IMG/VR virus record: IMGVR_UViG_3300045988_011408
Span: 1-5,895 of that record
DNA: 5,895 bases
Source of the DNA: a virus
Strand: one strand, 5' to 3'
The translations under genes and the position numbers were made by a program. Numbering within the stretch: position 1 is the first letter of the stretch; every line of letters starts with the position of its first letter. The notes under the pieces were generated by a model. It did not search any database and was not told the DNA's origin. It worked only from the letters and a program-made list of their open reading frames with translations. Of this stretch, positions 231 through 5,895 are shown piece after piece.

Positions 231-255
231 AGCCCGCAGAAATGCGGGCTATTTT
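231..255 (+). terminator. Rho-independent-type hairpin. An 8-bp stem AGCCCGCA/TGCGGGCT with a GAAA (GNRA) tetraloop is followed by ATTTT. Likely a leaky terminator or attenuator after VP1
   Basis: Perfect inverted repeat at 231..238 and 243..250, loop at 239..242, T-run at 252..255. It sits 12 nt after the VP1 stop and contains the VP2 start codon (242..244). Confidence 0.55.
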
Positions 256-1087
256 AAAAATGGCAGGAATTGGAGCAATGTTAGCAAGTGGAGCGTCCAA
301 AGTAGGAACATGGTTAGCACAGAATCCGGCAGTCGTAACCGGAGCAATGCAACTACTAGGCGGTGGACTGTCGTCAATGTACGGCCAAAAAAGCGAAAAC
401 TTTAGCCAAGGAAGCAACGTAAGCACAGGAAAAGGCGGAGGGCAAAGTTTATCTGTAAGTGAAGGCGGCACAAATGACGAACAGATAATGAAATATCTCA
501 GTCAATACTACAACTGGCAAGGAGGACAAAATGCTTTTCAAAGTAAGACAAACCGCGAAAATATGCTCATGCAAATGGGATACAATACGTTGGGTGCAAT
601 CCAACAAGGAATATACAACCACATCGAGCAAAACGCAGCCATGTCTTACAACAGCGCAGAAGCGCTGGCAAACCGCAACTTCCAAGAAAGAATGAGCAAC
701 ACAGCATACCAAAGAGCTGTAGAAGATATGCGAAAGGCAGGACTTAATCCAATCTTAGCATATGCACAGGGCGGCGCAAGCACACCGGGAGGAGCAGGAG
801 CAACAATCACAGGCGCAAGCATGGGAATGCCAACATCAAGCGCTCTGGGAGTATCTGCGCTAAGCGGCAACGTGCCAAACAGCTACTACAATAAAAGCAT
901 TGCAAAATCAACGTGGTATCAGCTCAGCGAAGCCGTAGGAAGCCAAATGTCAAAAGGCTATACAAGCCCATACGAGCTAACGAAAGACTTGCTAAAAACA
1001 TACGAACAAATGGAAGATACAGAAAAAACAATTCCATTCAATGCAGGCGGAGGTAAATTCCATACAGGCGGAGGAAGAAAAAAATGA
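242..1087 (+). CDS. VP2: Minor capsid / DNA pilot protein VP2 (281 aa). An alternative start at ATG 260 is possible
   Basis: The SD AAAGGAGGA lies at 220..228. The protein has a Gly/Ala/Ser-rich N-terminal half and the conserved VP2 block [29 protein letters not shown] (nt 677..763), followed by a G/S/T-rich tail. The stop TGA 1085..1087 overlaps the VP4 ATG. Confidence 0.85.
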
Positions 1088-2103
1088 GTTGCTACAAGCC
1101 ACTAATCAGGCTGTACAACCCGGACAACAAAGAAATCAGCGGGCGGGTGTACTCACTCGCCCGCTTTTCTCAGTTAAGCGGGAAACAGTTAAGATATGAA
1201 GATTTGATGTATAATCCGAAAGTTATGTTAATACCATGCGGACAATGCATAGGATGCAGAATCAGACAACGAGAGGACTGGACAACGAGAATTGAATTAG
1301 AAGCAAGAGATTACCCAAAAGAACAAGTCTGGTTTATCACGCTAACTTATGATGATGATCATGTACCGGGCATGATAGTAAAAACAGGTGAAATCATGCG
1401 GAAGGTGCAGTACACATGGAAGCCGGGAGAGAAGCGCCCAGAAAGCGTTCAAATCCTGCTGTATGAAGATATTCAAAAGTTCTTAAAACGCCTCAGAAAG
1501 GCTTACAGGGGCAAATTACGCTATTTTGTAGCGGGTGAATACGGAGAACAAACAGCAAGGCCACATTATCACATGATTCTATACGGCTGGAAACCGACAG
1601 ACCTAAAAAATTTGTACAAGATTCACCACAATGGATACTATACCAGCGAGTGGTTAGCAAACCTATGGGGCATGGGTCAAATACAAATAGCACAAGCAGT
1701 TCCAGAAACCTATAGATATGTTGCAGGATACGTAACAAAAAAAATGTACGAAATAGACGGAAAGAAAGCCAATGCGTACTACGAATTGGGACAAACGAGA
1801 CCTTTTGCTTGCATGAGCCTAAAGCCGGGCCTTGGAGACCACTATTATCAAGAACACAAGGCAGAAATCTGGCGGCAAGGTTACATTCAATGCACCAACG
1901 GAAAACAGGCGCAGATTCCAAGATACTACGAAAAACAGATGGAAGCAGAAAACCCGGAAAGACTATGGAGAATCAAGAAAAACAGGCAAAAAAACGCAAT
2001 GGAGCAGAAGAGACTACAGTTAGAGGGCCAAGACTATAAAACAGTCCTAGAAACGAAAGAACGTGTCACCAAAAAACAAACGAAAAAACGTGGTATTTTA
2101 TAA
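1084..2103 (+). CDS. VP4: Replication initiation protein VP4 (rolling-circle HUH endonuclease, phiX174 gene A homologue), 339 aa
   Basis: Motif I FITLTY is at nt 1333..1350. Motif [11 protein letters not shown] (HUH; HYH at 1564..1572) is present. Motif [12 protein letters not shown] (two Tyr spaced 4, then KK; 1717..1743) parallels the phiX A protein YVAKYVNKK. There is an N-terminal CGQCIGC cysteine cluster. GGAGGA lies 9 nt upstream, and the ATGA overlaps VP2. Confidence 0.9.
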
Positions 2104-2116
2104 TTGGTGTCACCTA

Positions 2117-2157
2117 GCCCAGTACCTATCAAGTAAGGTACTGGGCATTATTATTCT
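2117..2157 (+). terminator. Rho-independent-type terminator after VP4. An 11-bp perfect stem GCCCAGTACCT/AGGTACTGGGC with an 8-nt loop is followed by ATTATTATTCT
   Basis: Inverted repeat at 2117..2127 and 2136..2146, starting 14 nt after the VP4 stop. A T/A-rich run follows. Confidence 0.6.
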
Positions 2158-2160
2158 AAT

Positions 2161-2214
2161 CGCGCACACACGTACACGCGAAAACTACACGCGCACGCGT
2201 GCGCACGTATTATA
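2161..2214. repeat. Two perfectly alternating pyrimidine-purine (CG/CA) tracts that are Z-DNA-prone. They carry a 14-bp perfect palindrome GCGCACGCGTGCGC (2191..2204) and repeated GCGCAC/TACACGCG motifs
   Basis: 2161..2180 CGCGCACACACGTACACGCG alternates py-pu over 20 nt. 2187..2214 alternates over about 28 nt. GCGCAC occurs at 2162, 2191 and 2201, with the inverted GTGCGC at 2199. TACACGCG occurs at 2173 and 2186. GC content here is far above the surrounding AT-rich intergenic DNA. Confidence 0.7.
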
Positions 2215-2246
2215 ATATAACTTGTTGTAGTCGTAGTAGTAGAGTA

Positions 2247-2411
2247 TGTTGAAAAGTTGAAAAGTATAATTTTAAAACGTTAGAGCGTTAAAAATAAACA
2301 AAAAACAATGTTGAAAGATTTGTTGAAAACTTGTTGAATTGTTGAAATACTCTATTATGCTAAAGTTTAACAATGTTGAAATGTTGAAAACTCTGTTGAA
2401 AATGTTGAAAA
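2247..2411 (+). repeat. Iteron-like array with at least 10 direct copies of (A)TGTTGAAA(A) in three clusters. This is a candidate protein-binding, origin or regulatory array
   Basis: The GTTGAA core starts at 2248, 2256, 2310, 2322, 2333, 2341, 2375, 2383, 2395 and 2404. All copies are in the same orientation, spaced 8-12 bp within clusters. A degenerate copy lies at 2224. The region has stops in all frames and no coding potential. Confidence 0.8.
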
Positions 2412-2449
2412 CCCAATAGAAGCAGTCCGGAATCGAACGGGAAAGTCAC

Positions 2450-2496
2450 GGCCGCGCTTCGCTGGAAGTTGCGCCGCGTAGCGCGCAACAGCGGCC
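2450..2496. other. GC-rich inverted-repeat island: GGCCGC...GCGGCC outer arms with internal GTTGCGC/GCGCAAC arms. A candidate ssDNA stem-loop such as a complementary-strand origin or primase/PriA-type entry site
   Basis: GGCCGC at 2450..2455 pairs with GCGGCC at 2491..2496. GTTGCGC at 2468..2474 pairs with GCGCAAC at 2483..2489. Local GC is about 65% inside an AT-rich intergenic region, with no ORF. Confidence 0.45.
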
Positions 2497-2504
2497 ATCT
2501 AATG

Positions 2505-2572
2505 AAAAATTCTGCAAAAAAACTTCAAAAAAAACTTGACAAAAACAAAAAAATATGATAGAATATAATCAG
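2505..2572 (+). promoter_or_regulatory. Strong sigma70-type promoter. It has an A-tract UP element (2505..2535), -35 TTGACA (2536..2541), a 17-bp spacer, and an extended -10 TGaTAGAAT (2556..2564). The predicted TSS is near 2571
   Basis: The -35 is a consensus hexamer. The TG is at the -15/-14 position, and the -10 is TAGAAT. Phased A5-8 tracts lie immediately upstream, with AAAAACTTC / AAAAAACTTG repeated. The site lies 20 nt upstream of the SD for the 2592 ORF. Confidence 0.65.
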
Positions 2573-2591: not shown

Positions 2592-2780
2592 ATGACACAC
2601 ACATATGAACTTAGAAGATTTGAAGATGACGGGAGCATAACAACCGTACTAAAAATTGCGGCAGAACCAAAATACGCAAAACAGGACGCAAGGGCATATG
2701 CAAAACGAAATCCCGGACTATACACACTATACAAAATAGAAACAATAGAATCATTCTTCACTGAAAACCTTGACAAATAA
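2592..2780 (+). CDS. Hypothetical protein, 62 aa. It is the first gene behind the strong promoter
   Basis: ATG 2592 sits 8 nt after the SD AGGAAGG (2577..2583). The translation is MTHTYELRRFEDDGSITTVLKIAAEPKYAKQDARAYAKRNPGLYTLYKIETIESFFTENLDK, with stop TAA 2778..2780. I recognise no family. The track's GTG 2583 start is less likely than the ATG. Confidence 0.55.
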   Translation: MTHTYELRRFEDDGSITTVLKIAAEPKYAKQDARAYAKRNPGLYTLYKIETIESFFTENLDK

Positions 2781-2798
2781 GAAAAAACGCAATACAAT
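2770..2798 (+). promoter_or_regulatory. Possible second promoter: -35 TTGACA (2770..2775), 17-bp spacer, -10 TACAAT (2793..2798)
   Basis: The hexamers and spacing fit the consensus. The predicted TSS (about 2805) would leave almost no leader before the peptidase SD at 2807..2813, so function is doubtful. Confidence 0.3.
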
Positions 2799-2818
2799 AA
2801 AACCATGGGGTGGTAAAA

Positions 2819-3202
2819 ATGAGTACAGTAATCTTAAACCAAACAAACAGCGACCGATTAACGCAACACTTCAAAGCAGAAGAGTTTAGATGCAAAGACA
2901 AAACAAAAGAATTTCTATGGGCACCTGAACTACTCGCAGTACTGGAAACAATCAGAAACCACTTCAACGCACCAGTGATCATCAACAGCGGATACAGAAC
3001 GCCAAGCTGGAACAGCAAAGTAAACGGAGCACCAAACAGCTATCACTGCAAAGGGATGGCGGCAGATATCGTAGTAAAAGGGCACAGCAGTAGAGAAGTT
3101 GCAAAATACGCAGATAGCCTCATGGAAGAAGGCGGTGTAATAAGATACACAAACTTCACACACATTGATGTGCGCGAAAAACGATACAGAAAGGGGGTGT
3201 AA
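2819..3202 (+). CDS. Peptidase M15A family protein (zinc D-Ala-D-Ala carboxypeptidase / LAS fold, Peptidase_M15_3), 127 aa. Putative cell-wall hydrolase or endolysin
   Basis: The protein carries FKAEEFRCKD, then INSGYRTPSWNSKVNGAPNSYHCKGMAADI with a His-x6-Asp zinc-ligand pair (H at 3044..3046, D at 3065..3067). It ends with GGVIRYTNFTHIDVRE (His at 3161..3163). This is the canonical M15A domain layout. There is no signal peptide and no TM segment. ATG 2819 sits 5 nt after GGTGG. The track's GTG 2810 start is less likely. Confidence 0.8.
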   Translation: MSTVILNQTNSDRLTQHFKAEEFRCKDKTKEFLWAPELLAVLETIRNHFNAPVIINSGYRTPSWNSKVNGAPNSYHCKGMAADIVVKGHSSREVAKYADSLMEEGGVIRYTNFTHIDVREKRYRKGV

Positions 3203-3205
3203 CCC

Positions 3206-3310
3206 ATGGCATTAATTAAAGTCAAAGACCTGCGAGAGGCAATTCAGCTCATCAAGACCGTACTGGAAAAGCTCGACGAAATCTATCACATCATGAAGGA
3301 AAAGGAGTAA
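3206..3310 (+). CDS. Small hypothetical protein, 34 aa, predicted heptad-repeat coiled-coil peptide, translationally coupled to the peptidase
   Basis: ATG 3206 sits 6 nt after AAGGGGGTG (3191..3199) and 3 nt after the peptidase stop. The translation is MALIKVKDLREAIQLIKTVLEKLDEIYHIMKEKE, with hydrophobic residues at 3-4 spacing (L3,V6,L9,I13,I16,L20,L23,Y27,M30). It is too short for the ORF track. Confidence 0.35.
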   Translation: MALIKVKDLREAIQLIKTVLEKLDEIYHIMKEKE

Positions 3311-3403: not shown

Positions 3404-3646
3404 TTGAAAAAAACATGGAATGTACGAGACCAGACCGAAGAAAGCCTCAGACTAGAGGCCGAAAGGCTATACAAGCAGATAGAAGCCGGATACGAAATGG
3501 TAAAAAAAGTATCCAACTTAGAAGATGCAAAAAATATCATTGACCGAATCTGGATAATGAAGAAATGGACCAATGACATCGAACTGGAACTACTCAGAAG
3601 GGAGTACACATATGAAGCACAGGAAGCGGATGCCAGTACGCGCTGA
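3404..3646 (+). CDS. Hypothetical acidic helical protein. It is an 80-codon open frame whose only start right after the upstream stop is TTG. The first in-frame ATG is at 3494 and would give 50 aa
   Basis: The frame is open from the stop at 3398..3400 to TGA 3644..3646. It reads KKTWNVRDQTEESLRLEAERLYKQIEAGYEMVKKVSNLEDAKNIIDRIWIMKKWTNDIELELLRREYTYEAQEADASTR. A purine-rich GGAAAG..GAGAG lies 7 nt upstream of the TTG. First codon positions are purine-rich (RNY-like). The start codon is uncertain. Confidence 0.4.
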   Translation: MKKTWNVRDQTEESLRLEAERLYKQIEAGYEMVKKVSNLEDAKNIIDRIWIMKKWTNDIELELLRREYTYEAQEADASTR

Positions 3647-3731
3647 CAAGAGGATGTTCAACGTAACGGCACGAAAAACGAAGAGTATCAACCTCAGCCA
3701 GAAGCCCATGCGGGGCGGCATCAGACTGTAA
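3630..3731 (+). CDS. Candidate small basic DNA-binding protein (phiX J / gokushovirus ORF8-like), 33 aa
   Basis: The translation is MPVRADKRMFNVTARKTKSINLSQKPMRGGIRL (5 R, 4 K, 1 D; net about +8). AGGAAG lies 3-5 nt upstream. It sits in the only otherwise non-coding gap (3647..3742) in the structural gene block, upstream of the scaffold and capsid genes. An alternative start is ATG 3654 (25 aa). Confidence 0.4.
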   Translation: MPVRADKRMFNVTARKTKSINLSQKPMRGGIRL

Positions 3732-3742
3732 AGGAGAAAAAC

Positions 3743-3985
3743 ATGATTCACGGATACTATGGCATCTATGACAGCGTAGCAAAGTGCTACTGCTACATCG
3801 GAGAAAGCAAGAGCGATGATACCTTCGCACGGATGTGCAGTATCATGGCAAAAGACGAGAAAACGTTCCTGGGCCAGTCACCCGAAGACTACAAGGGCTA
3901 CCATATCGCAAACTTCAACGATGAAAACGGCCAGTTCGAGAGCATCGTACTGGATAAAGTCTGGGAGGGCAAACCGAATGAATAA
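3743..3985 (+). CDS. Hypothetical protein, 80 aa
   Basis: A strong SD AAAGGAG (3730..3736) lies 6 nt before ATG 3743. The translation is MIHGYYGIYDSVAKCYCYIGESKSDDTFARMCSIMAKDEKTFLGQSPEDYKGYHIANFNDENGQFESIVLDKVWEGKPNE. The stop overlaps the VP3-like start in an ATGAATAA arrangement. I recognise no family. Confidence 0.55.
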   Translation: MIHGYYGIYDSVAKCYCYIGESKSDDTFARMCSIMAKDEKTFLGQSPEDYKGYHIANFNDENGQFESIVLDKVWEGKPNE

Positions 3986-4373
3986 AAGATACGAGGAAGG
4001 GCGCAAGCCCTTCTTTTCGAATCCAGGTGAAAAACTGCGTAAGCAGTACGTCTGGGGCAAAGACGAGAAAGGCAACGACAAGCTGATTGAGACCGAACCA
4101 ATCGACATTCAGGGCGAAATTGAAAGCTATGCAGATGAATGCGACATTAAAAACATTGTCCGAAAAGCAAGTTTCGACCCGGAGTTCGCCAAAACTCTAG
4201 TAGACAGCGCAAAAACAGATGAAATCGTGGATGTCACCGAATGGCCGACCAACATTCACGAGTATCACGCCATGATGGCAACGGCACAGGCCAACGCAAT
4301 GGAGCTGCAGAAGATGCAGGAAAAGGCCGCAAACGAGAAAAAGAAGCAGGAGGAAAGCAATGAACCGGAATAA
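3978..4373 (+). CDS. Putative internal scaffolding protein (VP3-like), 131 aa. Its 3' end overlaps the VP1 start by 14 nt
   Basis: ATG 3978 sits 8 nt after GGGAGGG. The translation is MNKRYEEGRKPFFSNPGEKLRKQYVWGKDEKGNDKLIETEPIDIQGEIESYADECDIKNIVRK... It is acidic overall, and the ECDI.NIV block resembles what I recall of gokushovirus VP3 (from memory, not verified). Its position abutting VP1 supports the call. The 185-codon in-frame extension back to ATG 3816 is low-complexity and S/T/R-rich, and reads like an alternate-frame product of the 3743 ORF. Confidence 0.55.
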   Translation: MNKRYEEGRKPFFSNPGEKLRKQYVWGKDEKGNDKLIETEPIDIQGEIESYADECDIKNIVRKASFDPEFAKTLVDSAKTDEIVDVTEWPTNIHEYHAMMATAQANAMELQKMQEKAANEKKKQEESNEPE

Positions 4374-5895
4374 TGAACGACACTTCAACCAAGTACCGGA
4401 AACGCACGTCAGCCGAACACGATTCAATCGAGACCAGAACATTCTCACGACTTTCGATGCAGGTAAACTGATTCCGTTCTATGTAGACGAAGTATTGCCC
4501 GGCGATACATTCAGCGTGGACACGGCGGCAATTATCCGAATGACAACGCCGAAATATCCTGTTTTCGATGATGCATTCATCGATTTCTACTATTTCTTCT
4601 GTCCGAACAGAATCCTTTGGGATAACTTCAAAAGCTTCATGGGAGAAGTTGAAAGCACACCATGGATGCCAACAAGAACATACACAGTACCAAAAATTAT
4701 CATAAATGGAAACTCAGAGAACAATGATAAAAAAGGGCCGAAAGAAGAAAGTATCCTCGACTACATGGGCGTGCCGACCAAAATCAAAGGAAAAGTAGAA
4801 ATCAACGCACTACCTATCAGAGCATACGTTAAAATCTGGAATGAATTTTTCAGAGACCAAAACGTAGGCAACCAAGCATCAATAATCACAAATGATGAAG
4901 ACGTCGAATACTATGAAAAGGAACAGGAAAATGAAGAAGAAATTCTTGGAGGAGCAAGAGTTGGAGGAAAATGTCTACCGGTTAGCCGCTTCCACGATTA
5001 CTTCTCAAGCTGTCTGCCGTATCCTCAGAGAGGGCCGGAAGTCACGATCGCACTAACAGGAAACGCTCCTATTAAAATGTTCGATGACAACGGAATCAAC
5101 GGGCCGACAAATCCAACAACAATCTGGATGAGTGGAGCCGCATCAAGTCTGGGACAGAACGATAAAAACGAAACAATCGTAGCACTAGGCTCAACAGAGC
5201 AGACGGGTGGAACATCCGTTGCAAGATACATTGCAACAGACCTGAGCAACATCGAAGCCGCAACCATCAACCAGTTGAGACAGGCTTTTGCAGTTCAGCA
5301 CTATTACGAAGCGCTGGCACGGGGCGGCAGTCGTTACCGTGAACAGGTAAGAGCAATTTTTGGTGTAAGCATTAGCGACAAAACCGTGCAGGTGCCGGAG
5401 TATCTGGGGGGTGGACGCTATCATGTCAACATTAACCAAATCGTTCAGACTTCTGGACAGCAGACCGAAAACGATACGCCTATCGGCGAAACCGGTGCAA
5501 TGTCTGTAACGCCTATCAACGAAAGTTCTTTCACCAAGAGCTTTGAAGAACACGGTTTCATAATCGGTGTTATGTGCGTACGCCACAATCATAGCTATCA
5601 GCAGGGCTTAGAGAGATTCTGGAGCCGCAGAGACAGACTGGACTACTATTTCCCGCAGTTTGCAAATCTGGGCGAACAGCCTGTCAAGAAAAAGGAAATC
5701 ATGCTCACCGGAACAGAAACAGATGAAGAGACCTTCGGATACCAGGAAGCATGGGCCGATTATCGCATGAAGCCTAACCGCGTGAGCGGTAAAATGCGGA
5801 GCAATGCAGAAGGCACGCTAGACTTCTGGCACTATGCGGACAACTACAACAACGTACCGACACTAAGTCAAGAGTGGATGAATGAAGGCAAAAAC
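4360..5895 (+). CDS. VP1: Major capsid protein VP1 (phiX F-like jelly-roll capsid), N-terminal 512 codons. The ORF has no stop in the window and continues across the circular junction into 100..219
   Basis: ATG at 4360 sits 6 nt after AGGAGG (4348..4353). The translation MNRNNERHFNQVPETHVSRTRFNRDQNILTTFDAGKLIPFYVDEVLPGDTFSVDTAAIIRMTTP... matches the conserved gokushovirus VP1 N-terminus (F.QVP..., TTFDAG.LIP, DEVLPGDTFS). Downstream blocks also match the family (FWSRRD.LDYYFPQFANLG, YQEAWADYRMKPNRVSG). The frame stays open to the window end, and 5797..5895 equals 1..99. Confidence 0.9.
   Translation, partial: MNRNNERHFNQVPETHVSRTRFNRDQNILTTFDAGKLIPFYVDEVLPGDTFSVDTAAIIRMTTPKYPVFDDAFIDFYYFFCPNRILWDNFKSFMGEVESTPWMPTRTYTVPKIIINGNSENNDKKGPKEESILDYMGVPTKIKGKVEINALPIRAYVKIWNEFFRDQNVGNQASIITNDEDVEYYEKEQENEEEILGGARVGGKCLPVSRFHDYFSSCLPYPQRGPEVTIALTGNAPIKMFDDNGINGPTNPTTIWMSGAASSLGQNDKNETIVALGSTEQTGGTSVARYIATDLSNIEAATINQLRQAFAVQHYYEALARGGSRYREQVRAIFGVSISDKTVQVPEYLGGGRYHVNINQIVQTSGQQTENDTPIGETGAMSVTPINESSFTKSFEEHGFIIGVMCVRHNHSYQQGLERFWSRRDRLDYYFPQFANLGEQPVKKKEIMLTGTETDEETFGYQEAWADYRMKPNRVSGKMRSNAEGTLDFWHYADNYNNVPTLSQEWMNEGKN
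5797..5895. repeat. Second copy of the 99-bp terminal redundancy (same DNA as 1..99)
   Basis: Identical to 1..99. Circular permutation or assembly overlap, not a biological repeat. Confidence 0.92.

Follow-up and report, generated by a model that had tools for sequence, protein, structure and literature searches.

Gokushovirus lysis is mechanistically undefined, and the locus studied here raises the question of how a genome with a predicted murein-degrading enzyme and no detectable holin could release its progeny. The window, i.e. the whole stretch of 5895 bases that was analyzed, belongs to a lineage that represents a minimal system, having a single 127-aa enzyme but no gene for a membrane protein. 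The absence of a holin is part of the acknowledged ignorance on lysis in this group and not a new anomaly.

Genome organization and relatives

The window is a complete gokushovirus genome, circular and permuted, with every gene located on the + strand. The VP genes were found at the following positions.

4360 across the window ends to 219, + strand: VP1 (Phage_F, E=2.3e-132)
242..1087, + strand: VP2 (PHROG pilot protein, 2e-99)
1084..2103, + strand: VP4 (PHROG replication initiator, 1e-108)
3612..3731, + strand: VP8, J-like basic DNA-binding protein (..MRGGIRL; from the translation, net charge +12)
3743..3985, + strand: VP5
within 3816..4373, + strand: VP3

Presence of the full VP set, including the Phage_F protein VP1 and the J-like VP8, on one strand of a circular genome of the ~4.5-6 kb class bears out the gokushovirus assignment of the original prediction, and the nearest records are Gokushovirinae. 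The closest public records are gut 'Gokushovirinae/Microviridae sp.' from faeces of pig, human and monkey; their nucleotide identity to the window is 74-81% in parts of the genome. In the phage collection searched, the best whole-genome nucleotide match had 58% coverage and 76% identity, and the exact sequence was absent there. Matches to VP8 were obtained by tblastn in nearly all related loci.

The peptidase gene

The peptidase gene and its predicted active-site codons lie as follows.

2819 (ATG) or 2810 (GTG)..3202, + strand: predicted zinc peptidoglycan peptidase, endolysin-type, 127 aa (Pfam, PHROG, dN/dS)
3044..3046, + strand: His76 codon, predicted Zn ligand (invariant in 139 sequences; aligned with the SRH motif of 1LBU)
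3065..3067, + strand: Asp83 codon, predicted Zn ligand, H-x6-D (invariant in 139 sequences; aligned with AAD of 1LBU)
3161..3169, + strand: His115-Ile-Asp117 (HxD), predicted third Zn ligand and catalytic Asp (homologue alignment)

The product matched Peptidase_M15_3 (PF08291) with E=1.4e-24, the alignment spanning 2-108 of the 108 model positions and scoring 86.8 bits, where the curated gathering cutoff is 23.2. This match, above cutoff over the whole domain, upholds the earlier claim of an M15A/LAS-type zinc peptidase. The protein also matched phrog_894 'endolysin' (E=1.8e-35) and, weakly, PF05951 (28.7 against a cutoff of 27). It contains the motif SGYR...N..GAPNSYHCKGMAADI...THID. The proposed zinc ligands were followed through an alignment of 139 distinct homologues (109 microviral, 29 from bacterial genomes, and the window): His76, Asp83 and His115 (codon 3161-3163) were kept in every sequence and Asp117 in 138. 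The dN/dS ratio against relatives was 0.20, which indicates that the gene is maintained by selection.

A search of the PDB by sequence found a single solved relative, 1LBU (profile E=3.6e-6), the match covering the ..NS.H..G.AAD.. zinc-site segment. This structure is the zinc D-Ala-D-Ala carboxypeptidase of Streptomyces albus G (MEROPS M15A), which has the SxHxxGxAxD zinc-site motif in common with the window peptidase. Identity is 27% over ~90 residues; 1LBU is secreted by its bacterium and has a PG-binding domain at the N-terminus, and its bond specificity should not be taken over for the phage protein. The AlphaFold2 model of the peptidase was of moderate confidence (pLDDT 77.9). Its top Foldseek match was again 1LBU (probability 1.00, a weak E=4.5e-3, TM 0.46), followed at lower ranks by VanY, Ply500, LdcB, ChiX and LysECD7 mixed with unrelated folds, all with weak E-values. 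The modelled fold is consistent with a LAS-type fold.

In the protein database 730 homologous clusters were found, the best 120 of which were mostly on contigs of microvirus size (~5.5 kb), and close homologues occurred on hundreds of microvirus contigs. Identity to the window peptidase was 42-68% in GenBank relatives and up to 92% in IMG/VR relatives. Judged from these matches, 2819..3202 probably encodes a catalytic-domain-only peptidoglycan peptidase, an endolysin-type accessory gene as commonly carried in a large clade of gut gokushoviruses.

The supposed novelty of a peptidase in such a virus was not sustained, as it was published in 2012 (PMC3394797) and is already annotated in GenBank, where KX513868, KX513877 and MG945781 carry 'peptidase M15' or 'similar to peptidase'. 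Roux et al. (2012, PMC3394797) described M15_3 peptidases in human-gut Gokushovirinae and Alpavirinae and proposed a horizontal origin and a likely endolysin role. The gut gokushovirus enzymes have been noted again since (PMC7062461), and peptidases are counted as one of the few kinds of accessory gene in microviruses (PMC9239249). The gut peptidases of Roux et al. (PMC3394797) and that of the window agree in Pfam family, in position between VP4 and VP5, in the endolysin proposal and in a Firmicutes (Faecalibacterium-type) origin. The window is thus a further genome of the group of Roux et al. 2012, from which it differs in nothing essential. The gene alone changes nothing: it is a well-documented, horizontally acquired peptidase of gut gokushoviruses.

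Promoters and translation start

2536..2564, + strand: distal sigma-70-type promoter, TTGACA-17-TAGAAT with TG extension, upstream of ORF62 (11/12 match)
2770..2798, + strand: proximal sigma-70-type promoter, TTGACA-17-TACAAT (11/12 match; 20 nt separate the end of the -10 box from the peptidase ATG)
2806..2812, + strand: Shine-Dalgarno-like GGGGTGG, 6 nt before ATG 2819 (read off the sequence)

Two promoter sites with an 11/12 match were observed against ~0.06 expected by chance at such composition (probability of at least two, ~0.0015). Of 98 distinct relatives, 74 have a promoter matching at least 10/12 in the 260 nt ahead of the peptidase, mostly 20-45 nt from the start; at the Shine-Dalgarno position relatives have GAGGTGG or AAGGAG. 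The consensus promoter placed by the original prediction ahead of a cassette corresponds to the distal site; the nearer promoter, that of the peptidase itself, had not been singled out. Of the two, 2770-2798 is the more relevant to the peptidase.

Neighbouring small genes

2592..2780, + strand: ORF62, 62 aa (65 aa from GTG 2583), optional accessory gene (dN/dS 0.26)
3206..3310, + strand: ORF34, amphipathic-helix miniprotein (dN/dS 0.27; hydrophobic moment 0.67; net charge 0)
3404..3646, + strand: ORF80, TTG start, conserved clade gene (dN/dS 0.30)

Both open reading frames said to flank the peptidase, of 62 and 34 aa, are present as described. The dN/dS values of 0.26-0.30 indicate that ORF62, ORF34 and ORF80 are genuine genes under purifying selection. 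A scan of IMG/VR with the peptidase yielded 49 microvirus loci sharing one gene layout: VP4, a variable 450-700 nt, peptidase, ORF34, ORF80, VP8, VP5, VP3, VP1 and VP2. Overall this layout recurs in ~117 related microvirus loci. ORF34 begins 6-8 nt past the peptidase stop in 47 loci and ORF80 was found in 48 peptidase loci; an ORF62 homologue was found in 14 of 53, and also in L059, which has no peptidase.

Relatives without the peptidase were compared in the same way. Six such GenBank genomes with VP4 ~55% identical (MG945657, KT264788-90, MG945381 and MG945780) all have ORF80 and VP8; three have an ORF34 homologue (..LDKIYH..) and one an ORF62 homologue. The ORF34 homologue (..LDKIYH..) also occurs in the peptidase-less loci L062-L064 and L144-L154. 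Twelve further peptidase-less IMG/VR loci contained ORF80 in 11 cases and ORF34 in 10, the twelfth locus beginning too near VP8 to judge. All three small genes were rejected as peptidase-specific partners since each is found in relatives without the peptidase. By the same comparison the idea of a three-gene lysis cassette was not supported: ORF62 is optional, and ORF34 and ORF80 are retained where the peptidase is missing. The cassette is a matter of gene order only and is not co-inherited; the peptidase was inserted alone and has a promoter to itself. Comparison of gene content places ORF34 as the first gene of a conserved block, ORF34-ORF80-VP8-VP5, which occurs with or without the peptidase. 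The ORF34 and ORF80 pair has been left unannotated in the GenBank relatives.

Search for a membrane partner or export signal

Screening for transmembrane (TM) and signal segments was by Kyte-Doolittle hydropathy scans only, covering all stop-to-stop segments of the + strand. These scans detected no TM-like or signal-like segment in ORF62, the peptidase, ORF34 or any + frame of the genome, in agreement with the earlier statement that holin, TM segment and signal peptide are absent. The peptidase N-terminus, MSTVILNQTNSDRLTQHFKAEEF, has no hydrophobic core, and the maximum 15-residue hydropathy of the protein is 1.11; no signal peptide or SAR domain was detected. A holin-endolysin cassette was not found either: there was no TM-like stretch in the + frames of the window and none in the ~117 related peptidase loci. 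With holin, signal peptide and SAR domain all lacking, the canonical endolysin pathway is incomplete. On the evidence of these scans, the peptidase genome appears to have no dedicated viral gene for a membrane protein.

Hydropathy of the + strand was highest in a pseudo-ORF and in the Gly/Ala-rich N-terminus of VP2, the latter being the most hydrophobic stretch among established coding-strand genes. The former, 'ORF50' (2063..2215), was rejected as a holin, its short hydrophobic run spanning the perfect hairpin 2117-2146 and an ATT repeat.

The lysis function of phiX174, protein E, is an amurin that inhibits MraY; it is an overprinted, non-enzymatic membrane protein and has no counterpart in the window. 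A conserved overprinted TM frame had been suggested as a place to look. The sole hydrophobic overprinted frame lies inside VP1 (window ~5489..5704). It contains three stops here, and in nearly all relatives between 1 and 6, so it is no conserved overprinted gene. In three loci (L010 349..567, L066 5092..5307 and L073 3676..3891) this +1-type frame is open as a hydrophobic, C-terminally basic ORF of 70-78 aa; the similarity is a by-product of the conservation of VP1 itself. Antisense genes over the module were also considered and rejected. The minus-strand ORFs are hydrophobic because the strand is T-rich, and they are open in merely 8/30, 6/30, 32/85 and 1/14 relatives. One more, 3043..3225, lacks promoter support although 23 of 30 close relatives keep it open; the minus strand yielded no strong promoter.

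A small membrane protein in peptidase-less sister genomes

Sister genomes lacking the peptidase have an unannotated gene for a 32-38-aa single-TM protein between VP8 and VP5, which we call TM38 (example sequence MNVIITVGAGATIIAMCSATFALIVMGIDIVKNWRKNK). The gene overlaps both neighbours, sharing GTGA with the end of VP8 and ATGA with the beginning of VP5, and has a pN/pS of 0.47. Neither TM38 nor ORF62, ORF34 and ORF80 had a significant family match in Pfam, PHROGs or NCBIfam. TM38 was located as follows.

L060: 4756..4872
L061: 4545..4661
L062: 5148..5264
L059: 2265..2363
L144-L155: for example L146, 3201..3317

None of the 16 loci with TM38 has the peptidase, and none of the ~117 peptidase loci has TM38. 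In the window VP8, which overlaps the 3′ end of ORF80, ends 12 nt before VP5, leaving no room for TM38 there. A third lineage (L014, L039 and L040) has VP1 and VP3 nearer to those of the TM38 clade, yet the peptidase is present (e.g. L014 3002..3400; 66-80% identity to that of the window) and TM38 is absent. This pattern indicates that recombination carries the peptidase module from one divergent gokushovirus backbone to another, as remarked earlier (PMC9239249), and that the exclusivity of peptidase and TM38 arose more than once, the independent events still being few. The distribution fits the two being alternative lysis functions, with few independent evolutionary events behind it, and makes TM38 a candidate membrane lysis protein of gokushoviruses.

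In the non-coding DNA that follows VP4, peptidase-less relatives also share a hydrophobic ORF of 27 aa with almost no variation, MLNTMNFYPWNDIFWLILMLILLWITC (L060 ~3689; L148 1763..1846; L150-L153; L063; L064), which could be a gene or a T-rich DNA element.

Origin of the peptidase and probable host

Among 185,579 species-representative genomes the nearest non-microviral homologues of the peptidase, with 41-52% identity, were nearly all from Clostridia: Eubacteriaceae, Christensenellaceae, Oscillospiraceae, Acutalibacteraceae, Ruminococcus, Papillibacter and Oscillibacter. In these the M15 domain forms the N-terminus of proteins of 216-242 aa, one of which (L161) also matches PG_binding_1, and the genes adjoin holin-like ORFs with 1-3 TM segments in a classical endolysin-holin arrangement. 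The catalytic domain of such modular endolysins (M15_3 plus PG_binding_1) has the same H/D/H residues as the microviral protein, which in contrast lacks the C-terminal wall-binding domain and an adjacent holin. The homology points to derivation of the peptidase from modular prophage endolysins of Clostridia, with the enzymatic domain alone kept.

The cultured strain Oscillibacter sp. PC13 carries an integrated gokushovirus-like prophage (L185 4834..10045, NZ_FOXE01000003.1) in the order VP4-VP8-M15 peptidase (127-aa)-VP5-VP3-VP1-VP2, with a 42-aa single-TM ORF at 9710..9838, after VP2. The prophage lies beside a xerC-like recombinase gene and has TTATTTTGTTCAAT repeats on its flanks, the left site being palindromic and dif-like. 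The Clostridia homologues, this prophage, the sigma-70/sigma-A promoters and the strong Shine-Dalgarno sites together point to Clostridia hosts, and a monoderm host of the Oscillospirales type is likely. A Clostridia-type host was suspected earlier from the Faecalibacterium affinity of gokushovirus peptidases (Roux et al. 2012, PMC3394797). The Oscillibacter prophage may possibly serve as a host handle for peptidase-bearing gokushoviruses.

Proposed lysis by the peptidase and other explanations

We put the probability that the peptidase is the lysis effector at about 0.7, and it would most likely act as a holin-less endolysin. The gene, situated in the variable region between VP4 and the ORF34-ORF80-VP8-VP5 block, would be transcribed from its own promoter 20 nt upstream and by read-through from the promoter at 2536. 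The soluble 14-kDa enzyme would build up in the cytoplasm and then cut murein peptide bonds, freeing the progeny. In a monoderm host the cytoplasmic membrane would be the sole barrier to the enzyme; our best guess is that it is passed through non-specific membrane failure late in infection or through a host-supplied lesion. Any specific version of such a holin-independent route is proposed only tentatively.

A comparable system is phage Ebor (Tainavirinae), in which Gp7 is a peptidoglycan hydrolase proven by zymogram and Gp1 is a 45-aa membrane protein (PMC11980548). Like the window, Ebor is a microvirus with an accessory murein hydrolase; it differs in belonging to another microvirus subfamily, in having a Gram-negative host and in encoding the small membrane protein.

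A canonical membrane partner might have been overlooked, and the candidates would be ORF34, the VP2 N-terminus, an antisense ORF, or a holin of the host or a resident prophage. ORF34 is strongly amphipathic and is translated directly after the peptidase, but it is also present in the TM38 clade and has a net charge of 0. The hydrophobicity of the VP2 N-terminus, the conservation of the antisense ORF 3043..3225 and the abundance of prophage holins in Clostridia genomes speak for a partner of this kind; the other antisense ORFs, however, are broken in most relatives, the minus strand has no strong promoter, and the hydrophobic frame overprinted in VP1 is broken. On balance an overlooked partner seems unlikely. 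We regard it as very improbable that the enzyme has a non-lytic role, either as a virion-associated or early enzyme that opens murein locally at entry or in wall remodelling for superinfection exclusion. Trace amounts of Ebor Gp7 are indeed present in virions (PMC11980548), and a strong, seemingly unregulated promoter would suit early expression. Yet the homologues belong to lysis modules and not to structural modules, a T=1 capsid is short of room, no fusion to VP2 or VP1 exists, and the exclusivity with a small membrane protein better suits lysis.

The peptidase could instead act in the cytoplasm as an 'enzymatic amurin', destroying D-Ala-D-Ala, UDP-MurNAc-pentapeptide or inner-face lipid II. 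Wall synthesis would then be blocked and growing cells would lyse without a holin, an outcome similar to that of phiX174 E but catalytic. We know of no precedent for phage lysis of this kind. It would suit a coding strand devoid of export signals and membrane partners, and the loss of the cell-wall-binding domain of the ancestral endolysin. The sole structure found by sequence, 1LBU, is a muramoyl-pentapeptide DD-carboxypeptidase, and VanX and VanXY, which are M15 relatives, act on cytoplasmic precursors. The peptidase also seems to replace the small membrane protein of the sister genomes. Against this, its nearest non-microviral homologues are classical endolysins beside holins, and both the peptidase-bearing prophage L185 and phage Ebor do encode a small TM protein (PMC11980548). 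An enzymatic amurin is accordingly improbable in our view. Equally improbable is the related proposal that the M15 peptidase replaced a TM38-type lysis protein and that lysis proceeds with no viral membrane partner, for example via precursor hydrolysis; if true, no phage has been described that lyses its host in this way.

How a holin-less endolysin, the preferred reading, would work is made experimentally testable by the contrast between the enzyme-only lineage, the sisters with TM38 only (38-aa) and the Oscillibacter relative with both, together with a culturable candidate host genus. Two leads are of use here, the peptidase/TM38 contrast and the prophage in Oscillibacter.

Non-coding elements

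Three elements were observed between VP4 and the peptidase. About 11 copies of (T)GTTGAAA(A) with an iteron-like look are present at 2246..2412, after VP4, and GTTGAAA/GTGGAAA repeats sit at the same place in distant relatives, including those without the peptidase.

A GC-rich block of ~80 nt at 2420..2500 stands within an otherwise AT-rich genome. The block is present in 21 relatives, whose 14 distinct sequences of it show 92-100% nucleotide identity, and ~44% of synonymous sites differ in the coding regions of those relatives. The TM38 clade has equivalent GC-rich blocks of different sequence. A tRNA or attP at 2420-2500 was rejected: ARAGORN and Rfam returned nothing, folding was no better than that of shuffled sequences (z = -0.97), and the cross-clade alignment was out of structural register. 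The block is possibly a complementary-strand origin or another ssDNA element.

Finally, a perfect 11-bp hairpin right after the VP4 stop (2117..2146) is kept in relatives, and the ATT repeat 3′ of it is expanded in L006. The mechanical 50-aa ORF at 2063..2215 that runs over this hairpin is weakly hydrophobic. The region 2063..2215 is probably a DNA-level feature, either a terminator or an origin.
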